Source of the DNA: Patescibacteria group bacterium
GTDB lineage: Bacteria > Patescibacteriota > Minisyncoccia > Phycocordibacterales > JBBTRF01
Length of the DNA stretch: 64,000 nucleotides
Direction: 5' to 3'
Assembly (NCBI GenBank): GCA_038065315.1
Contig: JBBTRF010000001.1
Location: forward strand, 392,425 to 456,424
The position numbers and the translations under genes were made by a program. Of this stretch, positions 565 to 50,066 are shown one piece after another (position 1 is the stretch's first letter; every line of letters starts with the position of its first letter). Below the pieces are notes generated by a model, which searched no databases, was not told where the DNA came from, and saw only the letters and a program-made list of their open reading frames with translations.

Positions 565-1515
565 TTATAGCATTTTCTCAGCTTCGATGAACTTCTCCAG
601 ATCGCCTTCGAGTACCGCATCGGGATTGCTCGATTCGATATCAGTTCGGTGATCCTTCACCATCTTGTATGGGTGGATGACGTACGAGCGAATTTGGTTG
701 CCCCATTCAATACTCGTTGTTTTGGAGATCGCCATGCCGCGCTCTTTCGCCTTGCGCTCTTCCTCCATACGTTTGTACAGCTTGCCTTTGAGGATCTCGA
801 GTGCTTTCTCTCGGTTTTGATGTTGCGAGCGCTCGCAGGAGATGTTTACTGAGAGGCCGGTCGGGATATGTACAATGCGTACTGCGGTTTCGCGGCGATT
901 GACATTCTGACCGCCCGCGCCTCCGGCGCGGGCGGTGGAGATATCCAAATCGCTTTCCGGAATATCGAGGCGCGCCGCCGAAGAGAGCGAAGCATCAAAT
1001 TTTGGCACCACTTCCACCATTGAAAAAGAGGTTTGGCGCAGCTGCTTTGAATTAAACGGTGACAGACGCACCAAGCGATGTACGCCCGACTCGTTTTTGA
1101 GCGTGCCATACACGCCATTGCTGCCGGTCGGCTTACCAGTGATCTCGAAGGTAATGTTGCGGTACCCGCCATGACTATTTTCATTGTCGTCCAGCACTCC
1201 AAGCGACCAACCTTTTGTCTCAACATATTTTCGATACATCCGGAACAACATCGCTGAAAAATCCTCCGCATCATCGCCGCCAGCACCTGAAAAAATCGTG
1301 ATCACGGCTTCGCCCTTGTCATATTTTCCACCTGGGCCGCCGCTTTTCAACTCGTCTTTCAGTTCACCCAATTCCTTCATCATCATCTGCGCCTTTGTCT
1401 TGTCAGCCCAAAAATCACCCTCGAGCATCGCGGCTTCGATCTCAGCGATTCGCGCTTCCACTTTGGCCTCTTGGGCATTTTGAGGCTTTGAGGCTTTTTG
1501 TTCAGACGCGTCCAT
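565..1515 (-). CDS. prfB: Peptide chain release factor 2 (no programmed frameshift visible)
   Basis: 316-aa ORF with SPF tripeptide (RF2-specific) and GGQ motif ([12 protein letters not shown]); contiguous single frame. Confidence 0.9.
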
Positions 1516-3199: not shown

Positions 3200-3239
3200 T
3201 TTCTATTATTTCACCGAAGGCACTGGAGTCAAAAAAATG

Positions 3240-3507
3240 AGCCGTTGATCAGGATTGAACTGATGACCTCGTCATTCGTTTACACCTCATCTTGCGAGAG
3301 GACTAGACTGTATCTTTCTCCGCTTCCGCATTCCTGCCAGAAGTGGAGACCCTTGTCAGTCGTTCGGGCGTCGAACTGTTCGGCGCCACGGTCTTGTCCA
3401 GTATTTGGATATTAACCGTTATTCGGGATTCGCGACGGAATTGCTTCCATCGTGGGCAGGGGTGACGACCCACCAATGACGTGCTCTACCAACTGAGCTA
3501 CAACGGC
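3240..3507 (-). tRNA. tRNA-Thr (anticodon GGU) interrupted by a ~195-nt group I intron in the anticodon loop (after position 36)
   Basis: 5' exon GCCGTTGTAGCTCAGTTGGTAGAGCACGTCATTGGT (3472-3507) and 3' exon AATGACGAGGTCATCAGTTCAATCCTGATCAACGGCT (3240-3276) reconstitute a canonical cloverleaf with loop TTGGTAA. The intervening 195 nt (3277-3471) ends in G, the upstream exon ends in U, and the intron contains P7/S-like AAGATACAGTCTAGTCC and R-like GAACGACTGACAAGG elements. Confidence 0.6.
3277..3471 (-). other. Putative group I intron within tRNA-Thr(GGU)
   Basis: See tRNA feature: exon U / intron-terminal G, GACTG...CAGTC P7-like pairing, size similar to the Azoarcus tRNA intron (~200 nt). 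Confidence 0.5.
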
Positions 3508-3567
3508 AACTGAGCTACCAAGGTAGAGTAATATATTTACCTTCTTTAATCAACTATCACTTTCACC

Positions 3568-5464: not shown

Positions 5465-5821
5465 TTAAATCTTTTTTGTTCTTTTTACAGTCCTAATTCG
5501 GTGACAGTTAGCACAAACAAGCTCACATCTAGATATTTCGGTCTTTATTCTGTTCAAACTTGAGGTTTTCCGCTTAAAGTCTGCCAAATTAAAGCTTTTC
5601 TTCCCAACATGGTCAAATTCTAAAACCTGAGGGTATTCTCCTCCGCAGAAACCACAATCGATACAACTTCTCATTTTTTTATATTCACAAATATACTCGA
5701 GTATTTTCTGCTTCAACCTGTTTACATACGAAATGTGCTTTTTCTTATTTTTTGGATACCACACCTCTCTCATATATCTCTTGTGGTTTTGACGATGTTT
5801 TTCTGGATCACGATATGGCAT
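5465..5821 (-). CDS. Free-standing HNH endonuclease (homing-endonuclease-like), AT-rich
   Basis: About 117 aa starting MPYRDPEK; motifs CIDCG...EFDH...CANCH (HNH / zinc-finger nuclease). GC content drops sharply over 5440-5870 relative to flanks. Confidence 0.7.
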   Translation of the reverse strand: MPYRDPEKHRQNHKRYMREVWYPKNKKKHISYVNRLKQKILEYICEYKKMRSCIDCGFCGGEYPQVLEFDHVGKKSFNLADFKRKTSSLNRIKTEISRCELVCANCHRIRTVKRTKKI

Positions 5822-5921
5822 AGTCATCATATTATATATTATTTTTATGATGCCGTTAAGAAGAATGCTTTTGAAACGAAAAACAGGCGCCATTCCGAGC
5901 GTCTGTTTTTCGTTTTCCTTG

Positions 5922-6225
5922 TTGCGGGGCCGCGAATTGCACGCGGGCCTCAAGGTTATGCTTACCACTTCGGCTTTCGCCGCACCGACTTGGCTTCGTG
6001 GTCTGGACTATACCTTCTTCCGAAAGATACTCTTGTCTCGTTACGGAAGCCTGCCATCTAGTCTCTACACCTTCCGAGATTTTGCTCGGCTTGGCTCGGT
6101 ATTGCCACCCCTCCCCAAAGTTGAGAAGACGAGGTTTCACCGAATTTGACAAGTTATCAATACCGATTACTCGATAGTGAGCCCTAAAAATTGAGCCTTG
6201 CGAGTTACTGCTTCTCTACCCCGCG
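5922..6225 (-). tRNA. Initiator tRNA-fMet (anticodon CAU) interrupted by a ~233-nt group I intron between U33 and C34
   Basis: 5' exon CGCGGGGTAGAGAAGCAGTAACTCGCAAGGCT (6194-6225) plus 3' exon CATAACCTTGAGGCCCGCGTGCAATTCGCGGCCCCGCAA (5922-5960) give a cloverleaf with the C1:A72 mismatch typical of initiators, loop CTCATAA and a CCGCG/CGCGG T-stem. The intron (5961-6193) ends in G after an exon U and contains GGCAATACCGAGCCAAGC...GAAGGTGTAGAGACTAGATGG, near-identical to the Azoarcus tRNA-Ile group I intron (IC3) core. Confidence 0.7.
5961..6193 (-). other. Group I intron (IC3, Azoarcus-like) in tRNA-fMet
   Basis: Core block similarity to the Azoarcus intron (GGCAA.GCCGAGCCAAGC ... GGUGUAGAGACUAGA); 5' splice after U, 3' terminal G. 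Confidence 0.65.
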
Positions 6226-6263: not shown

Positions 6264-6299
6264 AAAAGATAGCATACCACGGAATGAAGGCGCAATCAA
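6264..6299 (-). promoter_or_regulatory. Putative sigma70-type promoter for the intron-containing tRNA-fMet
   Basis: Minus strand TTGATT - 17 nt - TATGCT, about 40 nt upstream of the tRNA 5' end. Confidence 0.35.
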
Positions 6300-27136: not shown

Positions 27137-27228
27137 GGAGGGGTGTCAGAGCGGTCGAATGTACCTCTTTGCTAAAGAGGCAGGGTCTAAACAACCCTCG
27201 GGGGTTCGAATCCCCCCCCTTCCGCACC
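27137..27228 (+). tRNA. tRNA-Ser (anticodon GCU), class II
   Basis: Acceptor GGAGGGG/CCCTTCC, anticodon arm CCTCT-TTGCTAA-AGAGG, long variable arm CAGGGTCTAAACAACCCTCG, T-arm GGGGG-TTCGAAT-CCCCC. Confidence 0.75.
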
Positions 27229-27405: not shown

Positions 27406-27492
27406 GGAAAGATGGATGAGTGGTTTAAATCAACGGTTTACTAAACCGTCGTCCCGTTACACGGACCGTGGGTTCGAATCCCACTCTTTCCG
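27406..27492 (+). tRNA. Class II (Ser-type) tRNA with apparent anticodon ACU
   Basis: GGAAAGA acceptor, D GAT/ATC, anticodon arm ACGGT-TTACTAA-ACCGT (perfect 5-bp stem forces loop TTACTAA), long variable arm, T-arm GTGGG-TTCGAAT-CCCAC. Confidence 0.5.
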
Positions 27493-27557
27493 CAGTAAGA
27501 AAAATGTATCGGGAGACCCGAGTGCCCAAAAAGGTCATTTTAAGCTAAAATTAAAGC

Positions 27558-37097: not shown

Positions 37098-37110
37098 AAT
37101 GATGCTGATG

Positions 37111-37183
37111 TGCGCCCGGAGGGAGTCGAACCCCCGGCCAGGTGTGTATAAGACACCTGCTCTACCAACTGAGCTACGGGCGC
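37111..37183 (-). tRNA. tRNA-Ile (anticodon UAU)
   Basis: Reverse complement GCGCCCGTAGCTCAGTTGGTAGAGCAGGTGTCTTATACACACCTGGCCGGGGGTTCGACTCCCTCCGGGCGCA; anticodon arm GGTGT-CTTATAC-ACACC gives TAT. Confidence 0.8.
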
Positions 37184-41339: not shown

Positions 41340-41795
41340 ATGATGATACCCATGGCGCTATTGCAGCACAAAAAAATCGGTCTCGACTACGAAATCCTCG
41401 AGAAGTACGAGGCTGGCGTTGAGCTACTCGGCACCGAGGTGAAGTCGGTCCGCGCCAAGCTCGGCAAGCTCGAGGGCGGCTACGTCACCATCCGCGGCGG
41501 CGAGGCTTTCCTCATGAACACCGAGATCCCGCCTTTCCAGCCCCTCAACGCGCCAAAAGACTTCGACCAGGCTCGTATTCGCAAGCTCCTGTTGAGTAAA
41601 AAAGAGCTTCAGGAATTGGCCAATCTCGAGGCGAAACAAGGTTTGACAATAGTACCTGTTTCGGTGTATAATAAGGGCCGAAAGTTGAAGGTGGAGATCG
41701 CAGTCGTAAAAGGCAAAAAGAAGCACGACAAGCGCGAATCCATGAAAAAGAAGCAGTCCGCGCGCGACGTCGCTCGCGAGTACCGAGATCGTTGA
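41340..41795 (+). CDS. smpB: SsrA-binding protein SmpB
   Basis: 151 aa; KKIGLDYEILEKYEAGVELLGTEVKSVRA...GGYVTIRGGEAFL...KKHD typical of SmpB; immediately upstream of tmRNA. Confidence 0.9.
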   Translation: MMIPMALLQHKKIGLDYEILEKYEAGVELLGTEVKSVRAKLGKLEGGYVTIRGGEAFLMNTEIPPFQPLNAPKDFDQARIRKLLLSKKELQELANLEAKQGLTIVPVSVYNKGRKLKVEIAVVKGKKKHDKRESMKKKQSARDVAREYRDR

Positions 41796-41822
41796 CAATT
41801 GAGCACGCAAGATTTTTTATAC

Positions 41823-42209
41823 GGGGATGCCAGGCATCGACGGAAGAATATCTCTTGAATGTGCGAAGGAGAGCTTCAGTAACTCTTAAAAAGGCTGAAA
41901 ATTCTAAGTGCAAAACTTGGATCTGTAAAGTCTCCGTACTTCGGTGCGGCTGACCTTGCATTCGCTTACGCTAAAGCCTAAGCGACGCCAGCCGGATGGT
42001 TTCCACACCGTTCGGTCCTGACGCTATATTTGTGGAATAGGATCAGCGGAGTCCCGCCGCCGATTCGAGATCATGGGAATAGTGCGTACCGCTTTTCGGT
42101 CGTTTCATAACGGCACGCGCGAATTGCCGCAAGGCATAGAAGCGCCCTACCCTTCGTAGACCCATTCACTAGACTCTTCTGCACGGGGGTTCAATTCCTC
42201 CCATCTCCA
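41823..42209 (+). ncRNA. ssrA: tmRNA (ssrA)
   Basis: 5' GGGGATGCCAGGCATCGACGG... and 3' tRNA-like end GGGGGTTCAATTCCTCCCATCTCCA (T-arm plus acceptor pairing with the 5' GGGGATG); located directly after smpB. Confidence 0.8.
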
Positions 42210-43770
42210 CATCCATAGAGTTTGAAGCCACAAAGTCCTCAAAAAGCCTTACGGCTGCTGGTATTTTATCGGTTCGATAACCGGTGTTTTTGTCGTAATG
42301 CAATTTCTCATTGAAAATGAAGAAGAACGTCTCCTGTTTTTCTCGCGCATCCAAGGAAGTCCATATCTTGTATGGGCTTTTAAGCAGTGTGGATACTTTA
42401 TCCAGAGCGGTTCGATAAGGAATTGTCAGATCGATCTCGCCTACTGAACCCGACCCGAGATTCTCAAGCTCCGTTGAAAGAATTTCAATTTGATCCTCAT
42501 AAGCTCTCTTAGCGGCTTCTACACCTGTCTTCGACGAAGAAATTGCTAGTTTTCCAATGTCCTCCTCTATCGACTTTTTCTTGGTGTTTCGCTCAGCTTC
42601 CTCTTTCTTGAGTTTACCGACTTCGTCTTGCCACACCCCATCAAACACAACCTTTAATAATGCGTCGACTTCTTTCTTAAGAACGCACTTTTTAAGAAGA
42701 ATCTTGAAACGATCTTCAACATCCTTCTTTTTTAGAGATTTTCTGTAAAAGGAACAATCTTTCTTTTGACAAAGATAGTAAGGATGCTTCTTGTTTCGCC
42801 CTTTCGACCAACCGGAAGTAAGATGACTTCCGCATTCATTACACAAAAGAAGACCCCTTAGCGGAAAGTCGTCTCTTACGTCCAATCGCACGCGAATACC
42901 CGAATCTTCCTTGCGCAATCTTTTCTGAATTAGTTCAAAGGTCTCGATTGATATTATCCCCTCGTGTTTACCGAGCCTTCTTTCAACTCCCCGCTTCGGA
43001 TATTCAATATAGCCTGCATAAAACGGATCCTTCATTACAGCACTGATACGGCTTATATACTTATCAGGATTACTACCTTTCCAAAATCCCTTTTTAAGCA
43101 AAAACCGACATACATCGACCCTACTCCTCAAGAAGCCTTTAGCGAACTGCTCGCGTGCCGGCTTGAGCAGTTCCAAGCCGTCTTTTGTGGGCAGAGACAA
43201 CATTCCGTGCGCATGATCCTTAGTCATTTTATAGCCCCTCTTGCTACCATAGGCCCAGTAACCCAATTCCAATCTCGCTCGTTGCTTTTGAGTAACCTGC
43301 CTGTGATTTTGGTGCCTCTCAAGTTCTGCTTGTCCCGCCATAATTAATTCTGAGAAGCGTCCCTCTGGACTTTCATCAAAATTATAGTTCAAACACCTTA
43401 ATACGATATTACGTACCTTGAAAGCAGCTCTTAATTTCAAATGAAATTCCACGTCGCGAGCAAAACGCTTGAGATCGTCGAACACAACAACATATCTCTT
43501 GTCGGGATTTGCGTCTATGTAAGCAAGGAGCTTTCGCATAGCCGGACGATTCATAAAATCACCTCCGCCTGTATAACTATCGGGAAAAGTCTTTGTGTGT
43601 GGAATACCTAATGTCGATAGTTCTTTTACACATCTCCCCTCCTGACTTACTAAGCCTGTCCCCTCAATCTCCTGTCTCTTACTTGAGACGCGTGCGTAAA
43701 CGAGACCCTCCCTGTCCTCGTAAACACTTTTTTGTTGTTGTATCTTTTTGTTTTTTAACATTTTTTTCAA
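42169..43770 (-). CDS. Large serine recombinase (integrase)
   Basis: 533 aa; N-terminal resolvase catalytic domain (YARVSSKRQ ... VVFDDLKRFARD), recombinase domain and Cys-rich zinc ribbon (CNECGSHL...YYLC); C-terminus overlaps the tmRNA 3' end. Confidence 0.85.
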   Translation of the reverse strand: MKKMLKNKKIQQQKSVYEDREGLVYARVSSKRQEIEGTGLVSQEGRCVKELSTLGIPHTKTFPDSYTGGGDFMNRPAMRKLLAYIDANPDKRYVVVFDDLKRFARDVEFHLKLRAAFKVRNIVLRCLNYNFDESPEGRFSELIMAGQAELERHQNHRQVTQKQRARLELGYWAYGSKRGYKMTKDHAHGMLSLPTKDGLELLKPAREQFAKGFLRSRVDVCRFLLKKGFWKGSNPDKYISRISAVMKDPFYAGYIEYPKRGVERRLGKHEGIISIETFELIQKRLRKEDSGIRVRLDVRDDFPLRGLLLCNECGSHLTSGWSKGRNKKHPYYLCQKKDCSFYRKSLKKKDVEDRFKILLKKCVLKKEVDALLKVVFDGVWQDEVGKLKKEEAERNTKKKSIEEDIGKLAISSSKTGVEAAKRAYEDQIEILSTELENLGSGSVGEIDLTIPYRTALDKVSTLLKSPYKIWTSLDAREKQETFFFIFNEKLHYDKNTGYRTDKIPAAVRLFEDFVASNSMDVEMGGIEPPCRRV

Positions 43771-43993
43771 TCTCCTCTCGCACGGCCTTTCGACAAAGCA
43801 TCTCGAGATACCGCAACCTCTTCAATATCTTGTCGTCAGAAATTACCCAATCACCAAGAAGGTCGCGGTAGACATGGGTGGAGACCGTAGTCTCCTTATT
43901 ATCATAGCACCTGTTTTCTTGGCTCATAAAAATAACCTGAGGGTTAGGCCCTTAGGTTATTCGATGACCGATTTAGATTGACTTAAGACGAAT

Positions 43994-44731
43994 CTAAGAC
44001 AAAAGCTTTTTAGGAATTCTCACTGACTGTCTAGTGGTAATAAATGCCCAATCTAGGCTATATTTGAGCAACTTTATCTTAATTTGATAAATCGCGTTGT
44101 AACACCTCTTTTCATCTTGTTTTCCACCACCAAGTCGCTCAGCGATCTCTGAGAAAAACCATTCTTCACCAACCTCTTTCGTATCCTCAAAGATAACCCT
44201 TAGAACATGATACTGATTGGAAAACTTGCGAATTTTAATTGTGTTCCCTTTTATATACAAGAGTGATTTTTCTGGGTCGAAAAAGATGCCATTTGGAGCG
44301 ATTCCAGTATCGCAAGAGTCGCGCTCCACGATCTTCTTCCTCACCGACCTAAGAACCTTTAGCTTTGCTCTGGTCTCCTTGTTGATATTAAAAAGCTCCT
44401 TATCCCCCTCCAAGTTAGGGAAATTTGGTTCTTCGTAGGTGAGTGGGAATGAGCAAACCGAATCCGTCTCGGAAAATATCTCTCTTTCATCCTCAAAAGC
44501 CTCCTTGTCCCTATCAAGAAATTTTCTAACAGCTGCCTTCCATCGAAGATACATTTTCCTAACATCGTGGTAATAGAAGGGGTTGTTCTTCCCATGAGAC
44601 ATGGCAACACCTTGGTTGGTATGGGCAGTTATTGTAATCCCCCGTTCGAACAACTTACCAATCCCCTCTGACAGGTCAGCATCTAAAATACTGGGGATGA
44701 GATCTGGTAATTTTAGCCTTCGTGGGTCCAT
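43994..44731 (-). CDS. Hypothetical protein (island cargo)
   Basis: 245-aa AT-rich ORF, no recognisable domain. Confidence 0.4.
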   Translation of the reverse strand: MDPRRLKLPDLIPSILDADLSEGIGKLFERGITITAHTNQGVAMSHGKNNPFYYHDVRKMYLRWKAAVRKFLDRDKEAFEDEREIFSETDSVCSFPLTYEEPNFPNLEGDKELFNINKETRAKLKVLRSVRKKIVERDSCDTGIAPNGIFFDPEKSLLYIKGNTIKIRKFSNQYHVLRVIFEDTKEVGEEWFFSEIAERLGGGKQDEKRCYNAIYQIKIKLLKYSLDWAFITTRQSVRIPKKLLS

Positions 44732-44972
44732 CAGTAGAAAGAAAGTGATTATATGCTAGTATATAAGCACAATTGAATTGTTTTGAGTAGCCTAAACCAC
44801 ACAAGCAATTGTTGGCATGGCGAAAAGCCCAGTAACGACCAAAAAACCCATCATATGGGGTTGTCGTTACTGGCCGTACAGGGAAACTTGTATGGAGGGC
44901 GTAAGCTCTCACCCATGTGGTGGGCTTTTTGCTACCCAACACTTGGTTAGAAGTTAGACCAGTAACATCTCA

Positions 44973-45305
44973 ATGACCAAAACCGGACTCCGCTATCATT
45001 TATTTTTGGCAGTACACCTAATTGGTATAGTGCTTATTATTTCGGGAATAGCTTTCATATTTCTGAACATGCTCATCATTACGAGTGATGGCGTAAGTCA
45101 TTTTGACTTACTCGGACTACCTATACCCACACCGCCGATTTGGTTTTCCTACATACCCTACTATGGATCCTTACTGGGCCAATTTTACGAAATGTTCTCG
45201 TGGCACGGCCTTGTTGAAATTGTCATAACAGCAACCTTAATTTTCCTGGGTGTTGGCCTAAACAATCTAAAGGTAACTGGGATCGCTCACCGACCGAAAA
45301 AATGA
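44973..45305 (+). CDS. Small integral membrane protein (3 TM; island cargo)
   Basis: 110 aa, three hydrophobic helices; 4-nt overlap with the next ORF. Confidence 0.4.
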   Translation: MTKTGLRYHLFLAVHLIGIVLIISGIAFIFLNMLIITSDGVSHFDLLGLPIPTPPIWFSYIPYYGSLLGQFYEMFSWHGLVEIVITATLIFLGVGLNNLKVTGIAHRPKK

Positions 45306-46087
45306 ATCTTAAAACAACATCAAAAGAGAAACTTCAAGAGCTACTCATTGCTGCCATGAGAGAGGAATTAGAGGACCAAAAAGCTGCCAAAAAAGATCGG
45401 TTTATAAGGGCGGCCAATTTAGCAATGGCGGAGGCCGATGAAAGAAATGCTGAATATGAACGCAACCTAAGAAAGGTCCTGAGTGAGGCAAAAGATAACA
45501 TGCCACGAATGAGTAACAACGGGGCTACAGTGGAGATAAAATTCATTGATTATCCCAATGGGTATATTCGGTATTCCTTATCGTTCCTCCACAGCAAGAA
45601 ATCCTTTCTAAATCCAGAATCACTTACCGAAAACCCCGTCACTTTCTATGAAGAAGGCAAAGAGTCTTTGATCCCCTTCTTTGAAAGCTTCTTGGAAGAC
45701 GAAGTGCAGTCGAGATACGAACCGCTAGAGCCTGATGTAAGGATTGAGGGCAAGAAATTACCGCACCAGTTTTTTAGGTTTACCTTCCTTATCAACGAAA
45801 GTAAGATCAAGCAACCTGAAGAAAATGATGTCGCCTACGGTGGCTTTATTCCCGCCCTGACACTAGAGGTTTCAAGAGTAGAGCTTTGGAAGTTTGTCTC
45901 GGAACTCCGCAAAGATTACGACGACTGGGCACTCAGAAATAACGGTCCGAAGATAAAGCGACAAAGCATAGTGAAATACGTGAAGTTAAGAAAGGTTGCT
46001 GAGGGTGTCATCGTGGCTCTAATCTGGATCCTCATCATCTTCATCTGGAATCAATTCGAACAACTTTGGAGAATATTGCTCTCGTAG
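45302..46087 (+). CDS. Hypothetical protein with C-terminal TM anchor (island cargo)
   Basis: 261 aa; coiled-coil N-terminus, C-terminal VIVALIWILIIFIW helix; co-transcribed with the preceding membrane ORF. Confidence 0.4.
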   Translation: MNLKTTSKEKLQELLIAAMREELEDQKAAKKDRFIRAANLAMAEADERNAEYERNLRKVLSEAKDNMPRMSNNGATVEIKFIDYPNGYIRYSLSFLHSKKSFLNPESLTENPVTFYEEGKESLIPFFESFLEDEVQSRYEPLEPDVRIEGKKLPHQFFRFTFLINESKIKQPEENDVAYGGFIPALTLEVSRVELWKFVSELRKDYDDWALRNNGPKIKRQSIVKYVKLRKVAEGVIVALIWILIIFIWNQFEQLWRILLS

Positions 46088-46158
46088 TTTAACGGAAAAA
46101 CAAGGCCGTTCTAACGCCAAGATGCGGGTTCAATTCCTGCCGAGAGTACTTGGAATTA
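46088..46158 (+). tRNA. tRNA-like element / degenerate tRNA (possible att-site remnant), anticodon region reads UCU if folded
   Basis: GCTCTCG acceptor, D arm GTTT/AAAC, T-arm GCGGG-TTCAATT-CCTGC and 3' CGAGAGT pair correctly, but the anticodon stem has only 3 bp. T-loop core GGGTTCAATTCCT is identical to that of the tmRNA 3' end. Confidence 0.35.
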
Positions 46159-46545
46159 AACAGACTGATTCTTTAGCCTAGCAAGGGTTTCATTGAGATT
46201 CCTGATTGTCTCATCATGGCGGCTATCTCGTTCCGTATCACCTCCATTAAGGAGTTGGATATTTTTCGTGAGCTTATCCAAAGCATCTACAAGATCGCGA
46301 TATTTAGCCTTCCTGACGGTCTTAGTCATATGTTTGATGGCAAGAGTACGTTGTATCTCCAACTCCTCAACAAGGGGCCTTATTGCCTCTTTGTAGGCCT
46401 TTGTACCGGTGACAATCTTCGGTGTTTTAGACACAGACTCAGAATATCCGTGCTTTTTGAGGATTTTGCCCATATTCAATTTCCGACCTTTTCCGAGGTT
46501 TTCCATCACTTCTCCTGCTACGCTTTTGGCGTTTATGCTGGTCAT
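46156..46545 (-). CDS. Hypothetical protein (island cargo)
   Basis: 129-aa AT-rich ORF. Confidence 0.35.
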   Translation of the reverse strand: MTSINAKSVAGEVMENLGKGRKLNMGKILKKHGYSESVSKTPKIVTGTKAYKEAIRPLVEELEIQRTLAIKHMTKTVRKAKYRDLVDALDKLTKNIQLLNGGDTERDSRHDETIRNLNETLARLKNQSV

Positions 46546-46697
46546 CTTAAAATTAATTACTTTGATAAAACGGACTTCAAGCCAACCTCACGAGAAACAT
46601 CAATTAGTGCAATTATAACACTGGAAGTGCCTGATTTTCAGCCACGCCTCCCCGCATTGCAATAACTACCCGAAATCTGTAGGCTGGGTCTAATGTT

Positions 46698-47471
46698 ATG
46701 AAGAAAGGGATCTGCAAAATGTGTCTTAAAAACAAGGACCTCCTCAAGGAATCGCATATTATTCCTAAATCTTTGTATAAGCTCCTAGCCGGGAAAAATG
46801 GCCTTTTGGTCTTCCTGAACTCCAAGCGACCTGAGCTTAAATACAACAGTGCTTACGATAAATATATTTTATGCGCAGACTGTGATGGTGGAATCATTGG
46901 GAAACTGGATGACTACGGGGCAAAATTCTTACACGCTAAATTTCCCAACAAGAGTACACCGCAGACAAGGTATGTAGACGGAGAAAAATGCCTCGTTTTC
47001 GAAGACGACCCAAACTATGACTACACCAAATTTAAGCTGTTCTTACTTTCGATTCTGTGGCGCAGCAGCGTATCTTCCCACCCCTTCTTTAGGGCAGTGA
47101 AACTATCGCCTGACACTAAAGAAATCTTAAGACTAATGATCAAGGATGGCGATGCGGGCAAACCGGACGAATACCCCTGCTTTATACACTTACCGCCAGT
47201 AACGGAAAGCTCTGAGGGACATCATGGCTTTAACATAGCCCACTTGCCTACGATGTCACCAGTCTGCGTCGAAACAGACGGAATAAAAATCTGCAAATTT
47301 ATCATTACGGGTTGCCACTACTATTTTATAATCGACAGGCCCAAAAACATCAGAGTGATACCGAGCATGGAAAAAGATAGGCTTACTATTAGATTCAGCA
47401 CAAGGATGGAGCAAGACATGCTGATCCAACAAATATTCGAAATAATCCGTGATCAAAAAGATACTCAGTAG
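46698..47471 (+). CDS. HNH-like nuclease motif protein (island cargo)
   Basis: N-terminus CKMCLKNKDLLKESHIIPKS...LCADCDG fits the CxxC...H-(I/V)IP...CxxC HNH pattern; remainder unassigned. Confidence 0.45.
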   Translation: MKKGICKMCLKNKDLLKESHIIPKSLYKLLAGKNGLLVFLNSKRPELKYNSAYDKYILCADCDGGIIGKLDDYGAKFLHAKFPNKSTPQTRYVDGEKCLVFEDDPNYDYTKFKLFLLSILWRSSVSSHPFFRAVKLSPDTKEILRLMIKDGDAGKPDEYPCFIHLPPVTESSEGHHGFNIAHLPTMSPVCVETDGIKICKFIITGCHYYFIIDRPKNIRVIPSMEKDRLTIRFSTRMEQDMLIQQIFEIIRDQKDTQ

Positions 47472-48136
47472 TAAAGACCATAGCGCTTGATCAGAGCGAC
47501 AAAATCCTTGTAAGTACTAGAGTGGCGAATGGCTTTTTCTTCGTTAAAATGGCTTCCTACAGATTGTGAGATGTCTTTTGCACCAACCGTCTTATTTAGG
47601 TCAACAAAAGAATTAAATTTCTCTTTACAGTGACAACTCGATGTAGTACTAGACAACAGTCTATTCAGCTCACTATCATGTTGATCTTTAAAATCTGGAA
47701 AGTTCGATTCTAATCCAGCAAAATACCAACTTTCAATCTCCACCTCAACTGGACAAATAAGGACCTCCTTGAATGATACGGAGGAACTGGCCACGGCCTC
47801 CTCAATTAACTTTTTCCTGACGCCACTCTGACTCTGGTCAATATCAAAAAGGACAACTAGATAGAGTTCAAAATCATTACCAAAAAGATAGGTGTGATTC
47901 TTGATGAAAAGAGAAGCAATTTGATATGTATCGGGCTTCTTTAATCTTTCCTTTCCAGCAACCTTACTACCAAGCTGGGGCGGGAAAGGAAAAAACCAAA
48001 AGACTTCATCCTTACTGTATATCGAAGAATTGCCATCCTTAAGGAGCTTTGATTCAAAAGACCTTCTTTCCAACAATCTCGGCAAAAAGTATCTTTCACT
48101 ATCCCCCTCTCCGATTAGCAAGCAGACCTTTTTCAT
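47465..48136 (-). CDS. Toprim-like (DUF4276/RloB-like) protein, partner of the AAA ATPase
   Basis: Start MKKVCLLIGEGDSERYF (conserved Glu), later LVVLFDIDQ (DxD) - Toprim catalytic signature; ATG overlaps the ATPase stop as ATGA (48133-48136). Confidence 0.55.
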   Translation of the reverse strand: MKKVCLLIGEGDSERYFLPRLLERRSFESKLLKDGNSSIYSKDEVFWFFPFPPQLGSKVAGKERLKKPDTYQIASLFIKNHTYLFGNDFELYLVVLFDIDQSQSGVRKKLIEEAVASSSVSFKEVLICPVEVEIESWYFAGLESNFPDFKDQHDSELNRLLSSTTSSCHCKEKFNSFVDLNKTVGAKDISQSVGSHFNEEKAIRHSSTYKDFVALIKRYGLYY

Positions 48137-49509
48137 ACTTCTTTTACTGGAAAAATTCCTTCGATTGTCCCCTGGCAAAATAATTCCGAATTTTTCTTAT
48201 CGGAAATGTACTTCTGCTCCTTCGGTGACAAATTTTCGATGATTGTCTTGTAATTATAAATATTACATCTATTTGCACCCTCTACCACAACGTCTCCGGC
48301 AATAGAAGCCGCGTCCTTTATATAGAATATCTCCTCGGTAGAAAAACCATCCAAAAAATAAGGGGAGTGTGTTGTTATGAAGATTTGAACCCTTCTCGAC
48401 AATGCTCTTAAAACCTCAATAAACTCTATGAGAATAGTCGGATGAACGATCGAATCAGTCTCGTCCAGGAGAAGGACGTGAGGTAATTGATAGCTCCTTT
48501 CCAAGGATCTCAGATTAATCCAGTTAAGTAAGGTAATAAAAAACACCAAAACGGATGTTCCGTTGGAGATTGTCCATATACCATCAGGACCGTTTGGCGA
48601 CGAGACAGACAAAGACCCCTTTGAATTAATCGACACTCCTCGAACTATTCCCTTGGTGTAAAGGTTCAGATCATTAGCAAATTTTTCTTTTATTATTTTA
48701 TTTTTTTCTATATCGCTTATCAAGAAAATAAACTCAGAGTTTTCAAGGCTGGTTTTGTTAGAAGGAACACCTCCATCCTTGAGTCGTCTCAAAGCTTCCT
48801 GATAAATCTGCTCATTCCCTTTGTCCGTTACATATTTATGAAGTGACAAAGCGGTCGTTATGTTACCCATATCGACACTAAGAAACTTCGGTCTAAACTG
48901 GGAAACAACGCTGTTTTGTAAATGTTCAAATATGGCAAAATAATTGTCGCCCTGCGGGTTTTTTATCGGATTCGACTGGATGATATTAGTATCACCTATG
49001 TTTTCTGTCTTCGAAAAATTCTTTTCGTAAACAAGGGTATCCTTCATCGTTACTGCACCTTTTTCAAAAAGAGAGTTATCTTTTGCAAAGGCTGACCATT
49101 TTATCTCACGATCCCTATTTACGTATTGCTTACCAGTAAAAAAGAGTTTGTGTAAGGTCGAGAAGCTATTTTTATCTAAAACTTTTTCGAATATCATCGC
49201 CTCGGTCTCGACACAAAAAAAATCAGTCTGTTCGTCCACCTGATTTCCGCCAACAAAACAAGTTCTTGCACTCTTATTCTCTATTGAGGTCTTCAACGAA
49301 GTAGTTCGAAGCCCTTGACCGATAGTAACATTATTGCCGCCAAACTCTTGAGTGTAGTCAGTTTTAATTTTCAGTGCAGAACTAATTGCCAACAGAAAAT
49401 TGGATTTACCACTTGAATTTCTGCCCGTAAAAACATTAAGATCGCCGAAGGAGATATCGGCCTTACTAATATTCCTAAAGTTCTTAATCTCAATATTTCT
49501 AATTTTCAT
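48133..49509 (-). CDS. AAA family ATPase (AAA_15/AAA_21, OLD/ABC-like) of a two-gene defense-type module
   Basis: 458 aa; Walker A VFTGRNSSGKSNFLLAI at N-terminus, Walker B/D-loop LLLDETDSIVHP and H-loop ITTHSPYF at C-terminus, long coiled middle. Confidence 0.75.
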   Translation of the reverse strand: MKIRNIEIKNFRNISKADISFGDLNVFTGRNSSGKSNFLLAISSALKIKTDYTQEFGGNNVTIGQGLRTTSLKTSIENKSARTCFVGGNQVDEQTDFFCVETEAMIFEKVLDKNSFSTLHKLFFTGKQYVNRDREIKWSAFAKDNSLFEKGAVTMKDTLVYEKNFSKTENIGDTNIIQSNPIKNPQGDNYFAIFEHLQNSVVSQFRPKFLSVDMGNITTALSLHKYVTDKGNEQIYQEALRRLKDGGVPSNKTSLENSEFIFLISDIEKNKIIKEKFANDLNLYTKGIVRGVSINSKGSLSVSSPNGPDGIWTISNGTSVLVFFITLLNWINLRSLERSYQLPHVLLLDETDSIVHPTILIEFIEVLRALSRRVQIFITTHSPYFLDGFSTEEIFYIKDAASIAGDVVVEGANRCNIYNYKTIIENLSPKEQKYISDKKNSELFCQGTIEGIFPVKEV

Positions 49510-49808
49510 GACGATAAGTCTATCACAAAATGAGGCGAAATGCGATAATATTTAGTATTTCAAACCCTAAATTTACGGAAATAGCCTTATTTATCAACGA
49601 ATATCAATTCTGAAATACTCCCACAGAGGTATTTCGAGTGGGTCACTATTCAAACAAAGGATGCAATACGTCACTTGTGTCCCCTCTCCGACTATAAGAT
49701 CAAGCATTCTCAAGGGCATTTTGCAGTGTTAGGCTTGAATTGTAATAGCTCCAAAACCGAGAAAGGTAGGATTTTACTCGGTTCAATGTCTTTCGTGACA
49801 TCTCCACA

Positions 49809-49851
49809 ACAAAAGAAAAATGCCAACACATTGTTGGCATTTTTCTTTTGT
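49809..49851. terminator. Bidirectional hairpin terminator (20-bp perfect stem, 3-nt loop) at island edge
   Basis: acaaaagaaaaatgccaaca-cat-tgttggcatttttcttttgt. Confidence 0.6.
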
Positions 49852-50066
49852 CTATCGGAAGAGATGGGAGGAATTGAAAGCCGGAGCGGATGTGAGGCCA
49901 GCAGGCCGAACCGCGAGGCGGGGTCGCAGAAATTTCCGAGCGTCGGCGAGGAAATTATCAGTGACCAATTCCTCATCGAACATTGACATAGCAGTTTAAT
50001 CATGCTAGCGTAATTTCAGCTCCAAAACGTTGGATCGCTTCCAACATCACACACATCAGTCAAACT

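Follow-up and report, generated by a model that had tools for sequence, protein, structure and literature searches.

A probable compact IC3 group I intron in the initiator tRNA gene of a Paceibacteria genome

RESULTS

An initiator tRNA gene interrupted in its anticodon loop

We analyzed a 64,000-nt stretch of contig JBBTRF010000001.1 (positions 392,425 to 456,424 of the forward strand; assembly GCA_038065315.1), hereafter the window, in which a tRNA(CAU) gene on the minus strand (6225..5922) consists of a 32-nt exon, a 233-nt intron, and a 39-nt exon. Our reading, which we hold with a probability of about 0.9 from sequence comparison, is that this is the initiator tRNA-fMet(CAU) gene of a member of the Paceibacteria, split between U33 and C34 by a compact group I intron of subgroup IC3 that has no open reading frame (ORF), belongs to class fMet.2Ug, and would be self-splicing. 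A preliminary description of this DNA had proposed such a split gene from the letters alone. Its coordinates, exon lengths, U preceding the 5′ splice site (U-1), final G, loop CTCATAA, T stem, and C1:A72 mismatch all hold on the minus strand, the strand having gone unstated there. All features are collected in Table 1.

The 5′ exon supplies the 5′ strand of the acceptor, the D arm, the 5′ half of the anticodon stem, C32, and U33. The intron begins with CAAUUU directly after U33 and ends in ..GGUAAG, the last base of which (omegaG) is position 5961. No CCA is encoded after the 3′ exon of this tRNA-fMet, where the next bases are CAA. Run in intron mode on the excised fragment and on the whole window, ARAGORN reported tRNA-Met(CAT) at c[5921,6225], its intron being 233 nt long and placed at position 33; in default mode, it called no tRNA gene at 6225..5922 of the minus strand. 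ARAGORN folds the ligated exons into a cloverleaf of 71 nt that has C1xA72, in which the anticodon loop is CTCATAA and CCGCG/CGCGG forms the T stem.

The insertion site in the anticodon loop, 33/34, is given by ARAGORN and can be read directly from natural alleles without the intron. Syntenic loci were reached via LigA homologues at 85-90% identity, and an uninterrupted 72-nt gene, identical at 72 of 72 positions to the ligated exons, stands at the corresponding place in L127 (GCA_964602975.1; L numbers are our locus labels), L128/L129 (two JGI metagenomes), and L133/L134 (two Logan assemblies). This match to the predicted spliced product is far beyond chance, and since natural intron-less alleles equal the ligated exons, we consider the exon boundaries, and the valid tRNA previously assembled from them, to be right. 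As CA begins both the intron and the 3′ exon, forming a 2-nt repeat, DNA alone permits three registers for the junction; it was set to U33/C34 because only in this register does a U precede the 5′ site and the intron end in G. Finally, the identical intron-bearing precursor occurs in three independent assemblies (Hain_H52_01um groundwater) and three further intron variants occur in relatives, which rules out an assembly artifact.

The intron fits the group I family model, and helices P1 to P9 can be drawn

The Rfam model for group I introns (RF00028, Intron_gpI) matched positions 6203..5983 of the minus strand across its full length (model positions 1-253 of 253), with 51.9 bits and an E value of 2.7e-10 for the whole window, bearing out the group I assignment made in the preliminary description. 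We then aligned four natural variants of the intron, namely those of the window, L124/L125 (GCA_037130265.1, 234 nt), L130 (231 nt), and L132 (231 nt), the latter three each ~90% identical to the window intron. A P1-P9 fold around a P3-P7 core, as had been anticipated, can be drawn directly on these variants. The model includes the P3/P7 pseudoknot and has 70 pairs, and 98.9% of its 280 pair cells are standard across the four variants, against 31-46% paired in controls with partners slid by one to three columns. Helices P1, P3, P4, P6, P7, P8, and P9 are invariant; all 44 variable columns lie in P2, P5a, P8a, or loops and joints, and those that are paired keep pairing, with three exceptions. 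At the sixth position of P8, inspection by eye shows a G:C pair in the window where L130 and L132 have C:G, a change hidden by alignment gaps. Minimum free energy (MFE) folding by itself recovers P2, P3, P4-P5a, P6a, P8, and P9 (z −1.8).

Within this fold, exon bases G30, G31, C32, and U33 pair together with intron base C+1 with the internal guide 5′-GGGCU (6184..6180) under loop L1 (UUUU) to form P1, in which U33 (6194) and G6183 make the U•G wobble of the splice site. The P4-P6a domain comprises P4 (UCGGUG/UACCGA), J4/5 (AAA), J5/4 (CAA), a 7-bp P5a, P6 (GCC/GGU), and a 5-bp P6a, and it is in P5a that the double compensatory change counted among the variants (U:A to C:G) sits, beside several wobble transitions. 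By homology, P7 would hold the guanosine-binding site. The P9 region is made up of an outer helix (CCAC/GUGG), a small variable hairpin, and a GGC-GAAA-GCC tetraloop hairpin, followed by UAAG ending in omegaG. No homing-endonuclease ORF is present, the 233 nt being wholly taken up by ribozyme helices.

Table 1. Positions in the window of the split initiator tRNA gene, its intron helices, flanking signals, and the second interrupted tRNA gene
Feature	Position	Strand	Details and evidence
Promoter-like element	6271..6299	−	-35 TTGATT (6299..6294), 17-nt spacer, TG-extended -10 TATGCT (6276..6271)
5′ exon CGCGGGGTAGAGAAGCAGTAACTCGCAAGGCT	6194..6225	−	32 nt, tRNA 1-33; ARAGORN; equals 5′ part of intron-less alleles
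Group I (IC3-type) intron	5961..6193	−	233 nt, no ORF; RF00028, ARAGORN, homology to published IC3 introns
P1 hairpin	6180..6197	−	Six pairs standard in four variants; Rfam alignment puts consensus U-1 on the same U
P2, 6 bp, GUAA tetraloop	6161..6176	−	In L124, one-sided changes at three pairs preserve pairing; recovered by MFE
P3 5′ strand CUUGUCA	6147..6153	−	Pairs with 6056..6050; in Rfam model and MFE fold
P4-P5-P5a-P6-P6a domain	6069..6143	−	Rfam alignment, four-variant model, MFE
P7 5′ strand GAGACUA, A6064 bulged	6059..6065	−	Pairs with 6010..6005 (UAGUCC); invariant in four variants and IC3 comparators
P3 3′ strand UGGCAGG	6050..6056	−	Drawn helix, four-variant alignment
P8 CUUCCG/CGGAAG and variable distal helix P8a	6017..6049	−	Four-variant model, MFE
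J8/7 AAGGUA and P7 3′ strand UAGUCC	6005..6016	−	Block GAAGGUAUAGUCCAGACC kept in all IC3 comparators
P9 region	5961..6001	−	Four-variant model, MFE
3′ exon CATAACCTTGAGGCCCGCGTGCAATTCGCGGCCCCGCAA	5922..5960	−	39 nt, C34 to discriminator A73
Intrinsic terminator hairpin and U tract	5877..5912	−	Directly after the tRNA; MFE −17.4 kcal/mol, z −4.15
tRNA-Thr(GGT)	3239..3507	−	195-nt insert 3277..3471 at 36/37, after U36, ends in G; ARAGORN intron mode

Homology places the intron in subgroup IC3

A collinear alignment with six published tRNA introns labeled IC3 gave 76-83% identity over aligned positions. These comparators, for which Table S5 of Nakagawa et al. (2026; PMC13011429) gives both sequence and subgroup, come from Bacillota_B (Ile2, 33/34), Bacteroidota (fMet, 33/34), Acidobacteriota and Cyanobacteriota (Leu, 34/35), and Actinomycetota (Lys, 34/35). 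The IC3 blocks CCGAGCCAAGC, GAAGGUGUAGAGACU, and AUAGUCCAGACC are all present in the window intron, assigning it to the subgroup by homology, and its 3′ end, GCGAAAGCCGAAGUGGUAAG, is common to IC3 introns of Acidobacteriota and Actinomycetota. When one genome per species was scanned for the core GAGCCAAG..GAAGGTGTAGAGACTAGAYGG, it was found in tRNA introns of more than 120 species (at least 120 loci). Among the matches listed, nearly all lie inside tRNA genes, mostly tRNA-Leu(UAA), in Pseudomonadota, Acidobacteriota, Chloroflexota, and others; neither the window's own genome nor any Azoarcus record is in this list. The Azoarcus-like IC3 type proposed earlier is upheld indirectly by both comparisons, and the core strings then quoted are present in the intervening sequence.

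The at least 120 core matches listed include no obvious donor, the sampled introns all being ~76-84% identical over alignable positions. A phage collection yielded two short core matches only. Nothing suggests a phage origin for the intron, and its gene context is chromosomal.

Flanking signals

The promoter-like element upstream of tRNA-fMet probably acts as its promoter, as judged from sequence features. The block ..TTGAT..GTGGTATGCT.. is kept in relatives with and without the intron, and the element scores below the threshold of our consensus scan. From its position, a 5′ leader of ~40 nt would follow, to be removed by RNase P. On the other side of the gene, the stem of the terminator is kept via many compensatory changes, in intron-plus and intron-minus relatives alike.

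Initiator identity and function of the split gene

The C1xA72 mismatch and A11:U24 are hallmarks of bacterial initiator tRNAs, and both are present here. The acceptor, CGCGGGG/CCCCGCA, is likewise that of standard bacterial initiators, as at locus L063 and in the Bacteroidota fMet comparators.

Several observations tell against an active intron in an initiator gene. The RF00028 score clears the gathering threshold of 50 bits by only 1.9 bits. Covariation is not significant among four variants that are ~90% identical (one double-sided change was counted, and 219 of 500 shuffles equaled it); with variants so similar, the structure rests mainly on homology, not covariation. P10 comes down to essentially one base pair. 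In the tRNA, two of the three hallmark G:C pairs of the anticodon stem are present (A29:U41, G30:C40, G31:C39), the 7-nt D loop AGCAGUA is without G18G19, and the T loop UGCAAUU has G at position 55. Last, our view is limited to the 64-kb window and to loci of ~20 kb, and a second, uninterrupted initiator gene elsewhere is conceivable.

The anticodon-stem pairs and the non-canonical D and T loops could instead indicate an elongator tRNA-Met or a tRNA-Ile2 (CAU read as lysidine), the host of many introns at 33/34 in CAU tRNAs, and surveys label similar genes “Met” or “Ile2” inconsistently. We regard such a host as improbable, given the two initiator hallmarks, an acceptor shared with standard initiators, and the presence of a separate tRNA-Met(CAT) 500 bp downstream, which has G1:C72 and is therefore not an initiator, being of elongator type or Ile2. 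The initiator identity given in the preliminary description is retained as probable on C1xA72 and A11:U24, with the qualification, not remarked there, that A29:U41 replaces the first of the three G:C pairs.

The unusual traits of the tRNA also recur beyond the closest relatives. L135 (16483..16554) and L136 (14884..14955), at ~69% LigA identity, have a tRNA of the same architecture, in which the T stem and the anticodon stem differ by compensatory changes. Over ~30% LigA divergence, the clade's initiators keep A29:U41, a 7-nt D loop lacking G18G19, G55 within a T loop UGCRAUU, and the absence of an encoded CCA. Because the gene is identical across close genomes and this pattern is shared by L135 and L136, we take the traits to be those of the lineage and not signs of decay.

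A further possibility is that the intron is real but dead for splicing, with another initiator tRNA gene elsewhere doing the work. The marginal Rfam score, the weak P10, and the restricted genomic view would all be compatible with this. It is nonetheless very improbable in our estimation: the tRNA exons are 100% conserved among genomes whose LigA differs by 10-15%, the core helices are all intact and peripheral substitutions keep pairing, the promoter-like block and the terminator are conserved, and in relatives lacking the intron, the only visible initiator stands at this same locus. We therefore retain the reading of an initiator gene carrying a group I intron that is almost certainly functional and, by sequence homology, presumably self-splicing.

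Overlapping ORFs and annotation

Three ORFs run over the region, at 5735..6061 and 5847..6149 on the plus strand and at 5856..6152 on the minus strand, and a public gene caller has placed an 88-aa ORF at window positions 5795..6061(+), covering the 3′ half of the fMet intron in antisense. The same 88-aa ORF appears at L121 10775..11041, L122 7237..7503, and L123 2587..2853. That the region encodes small proteins, its RNA similarity being incidental, would account for the predicted product; we give this hardly any credence, as a Pfam search of the ORFs overlapping the fMet intron found no match for any of the three, they are cleanly deleted in relatives without the intron, and the DNA fits an RNA covariance model end to end. 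With no Pfam match, and with no such ORF where the intron is absent, we conclude that the overlapping ORFs are artifacts, and the 88-aa entry is a spurious protein in public databases. The preliminary description had also called them artifacts, and only its “ORF 5735..6149” needs correcting, since this is two frames (5735..6061 and 5847..6149).

Interrupted initiator genes of this kind are systematically misannotated. Intron mode of ARAGORN gives tRNA-Leu(CAA) for the gene of L124 and tRNA-Ser for that of L096, a locus of another lineage described below. As standard tRNA finders miss the gene and gene callers place an ORF on the intron, such genomes appear to be without an initiator tRNA.

Host lineage and distribution of the intron

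Named LigA homologues at 63-69% identity belong to Paceibacterota, Parcubacteria, Pacebacteria, and Taylorbacteria, the exceptions being generic “[bacterium]” labels and one Nanoarchaeia label. Judged by these protein relationships, the host is a member of the Patescibacteria, or candidate phyla radiation (CPR), class Paceibacteria. It is an ultra-small bacterium from a 0.1-µm groundwater filtrate. The gene neighborhood holds a type IV pilus cluster, LigA, GatCA, and a release factor. This class-I release factor, 565..1515(−), is only 316 aa long, and its PCRF match begins at position 93 of the 194-position profile, making it N-terminally short relative to typical RF1/RF2; its length in relatives is also 307-318 aa.

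The fMet intron is present in the window, L124, L130, and L132 and absent from L127, L128, L133, L135, and L136. In neighbor-joining trees of LigA and of GatA, the earliest branches are the intron-less L127 and L128, with L135/L136 falling outside, and the two trees disagree on the placement of the intron-less L133. This distribution suggests that an inner sub-clade gained the intron recently, with perhaps one later loss, in L133. A metagenome scan anchored on the exon T arm and acceptor retrieved two contigs only. As only part of a shallow clade has the intron, it may best be regarded as a recently acquired passenger, which we infer to be selectively near-neutral.

A second intron in tRNA-Thr(GGU)

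The preliminary description had noted another tRNA intron ~2.5 kb away, and this was recovered as an insert (3471..3277) in tRNA-Thr(GGT), 3507..3239(−). An uninterrupted tRNA-Thr gene in L132 is identical at 74 of 74 positions to the ligated exons. RF00028 gave no match to the insert even at E ≤ 10. Its four variants have a common fold, with a P7-like GACUG/CAGUC helix around a variable P8-like hairpin, then AAGAUACAGUC, which resembles J8/7-P7. Introns at 36/37 of Patescibacteria tRNA-Thr(GGU) have been published as divergent group I introns, detected only by the model of tFind, and the insert appears to match these, going by the literature and the consensus fold. A 12-nt direct repeat, GTAGCTCAGTTG, at ~3490..3520(−) abuts the 5′ end of tRNA-Thr(GGT) and copies tRNA positions 7-18; it may be a recombination scar.

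The Thr and fMet introns are distributed independently of each other, both being present in the window and L124, the fMet intron alone in L130 and L132, and the Thr intron alone in L127 and L128. The intron activity that had been suggested for tRNA genes of this lineage is thereby upheld, in that both introns are polymorphic for presence among close relatives.

Other features of the window

SmpB (41340..41795) is followed by tmRNA (41823..42212) and then, overlapping the 3′ end of tmRNA, by a large serine recombinase (42169..43770, minus strand). Then come ~8 kb at 39-44% GC (within 41340..50000) with a LOOT RNA at 44789..44910 (85 bits), tRNA-Arg(TCT) at 46078..46149, and an AAA_15/AAA_21 ATPase at 48133..49509. 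Region 41340..50000 resembles a genomic island that has inserted into the tmRNA gene; no clear attachment-site repeat was found for it. A tRNA-Ser with the unusual anticodon ACT (putative register) at 27406..27493(+) adjoins tRNA-Ser(GCT) at 27137..27225, and A34 is rare in the Ser tRNAs of bacteria. A tRNA-Ile with anticodon TAT lies at 37110..37183(−).

DISCUSSION

The maturation of the split initiator can be outlined, with catalysis and the order of processing inferred. The tRNA-fMet gene would be transcribed as its own unit, from the promoter-like element to the intrinsic terminator. In the precursor, G30 to U33 would leave the anticodon stem and pair with the intron guide GGGCU to form P1, with U33 in its wobble with G. 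A free guanosine bound in P7 would attack the bond after U33; omegaG would then occupy the same site, and the 3′ OH of U33 would attack the bond after omegaG, ligating the exons into a 71-nt tRNA with loop CUCAUAA. As P10 is nearly absent, the 3′ exon is probably aligned via pairing of one exon with the other within the anticodon stem, as shown for other tRNA introns. RNase P and CCA addition would complete the tRNA.

How the intron arrived, and whether it does anything for its host, can be put only speculatively. One doubtful scenario is a recent invasion, by an IC3 intron without an endonuclease, of a single-copy initiator gene in one Paceibacteria sub-clade, from a donor outside the intron lineages published for Patescibacteria, by reverse splicing or recombination after DNA uptake. 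The intron would then be retained as a growth control at the RNA level, its splicing, dependent on guanosine/GTP and Mg, gating the initiator tRNA supply in a genome from which most regulators have been lost.

The near-identical genomes with and without the fMet intron, and with and without the Thr intron, document precise gain or loss of tRNA introns on short timescales. This bears on the suggestion of Nakagawa et al. (2026; PMC13011429) that the difficulty of losing such introns explains their persistence. The hosts of the classical IC3 fMet intron are extended to Paceibacteria by the window and to Saccharimonadia by L096. The understanding of how group I introns work is unchanged.

The structural model ribozyme of this subgroup is the IC3 intron of Azoarcus pre-tRNA-Ile(CAU). 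Both it and the window intron are small, lack an ORF, and lie in the anticodon loop of a CAU tRNA; the Azoarcus intron differs in its site (Ile2 36/37, “Ile2.5Ug”) and host tRNA. Strings that we take to belong to the Azoarcus core (GUCAAAUUCGG.GAAACC, GGCAA..CCGAGCCAAGC, and GAAGGUGUAGAGACUAGA.GGCA) are common to the window intron, as is a P9 GAAA tetraloop, a presumed likeness that served as a lead and not as a test. In the P5 region, the window has CCUCGU../..GGGGUGG against what is presumably a CCUAAG/UAUGG tetraloop receptor in Azoarcus, and its L2 is GUAA.

The closest known class is fMet.2Ug (33/34, U-1, omegaG), which Williams (2020; 10.1101/2020.01.27.920355) counts among four classical classes of bacterial tRNA intron, all of them IC3. 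With this class, first described in cyanobacteria, the window intron shares the type of host gene (here a probable initiator tRNA(CAU)), the site U33|C34, U-1, omegaG, and the IC3 core blocks. It differs in having a simple 6-bp P2 with a GUAA loop, without large P1/P2 elaboration, and no endonuclease ORF, whereas some cyanobacterial fMet.2Ug members encode PD-(D/E)XK enzymes; the window intron, moreover, resides in a Paceibacterium whose initiator tRNA is reduced and non-canonical. To the Bacteroidota fMet introns at 33/34 printed in Nakagawa et al. (2026; PMC13011429), it is 76-81% identical over aligned positions. At 233 nt, it is much more compact than these introns (303-305 nt) and than that of L063 (639 nt).

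Within the phylum, two Patescibacteria Met(CAU) introns at 33/34 have already been published, both from Microgenomatia (GCA_001029755.1 and GCA_013426185.1; Nakagawa et al. 2026, PMC13011429, Tables 1 and S3). They share with the window intron the phylum, the site, and the kind of host tRNA (..GCGGGG/CCCCGCAA acceptor), and with L124 the ARAGORN mislabel “Leu(CAA) 36/37.” Unlike the window intron, they are without the IC3 signature GAGCCAAG..GAAGGUGUAGAGACUAGA and the 3′ end GCGAAAGC..GUGGUAAG and carry CCGAGGGAAG / CUAGAGACUACACGCC, and positions identical to theirs cover 58-61% of the window intron; with the IC3 comparators, the corresponding coverage is 65-71%. That survey of 95 complete Patescibacteria genomes placed none of the phylum's tRNA introns in subgroup IC (Nakagawa et al. 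2026, PMC13011429).

A counterpart in another CPR class is L096, on a Candidatus Saccharibacteria metagenome-assembled genome (CAYITJ010000002.1, 5103..5394, minus strand), where an initiator-type tRNA(CAU) carries a 218-nt intron at 33/34. That intron has the IC3 core and the same ..GUAGUGGUAAG|CAUAACC junction and is 81% identical to the window intron over aligned positions; it differs in starting with UGAAC and in its P2, P5a, and P8. Its host, unlike the window tRNA, encodes CCA and combines a D loop bearing the canonical GG with the T loop UUCGAUU. To our knowledge, this intron-bearing tRNA is unannotated, and ARAGORN labels the interrupted gene tRNA-Ser(TGA). The kind of intron in the window is thus already known, and what is new is the class of its host, its compactness, and its documented presence/absence polymorphism.

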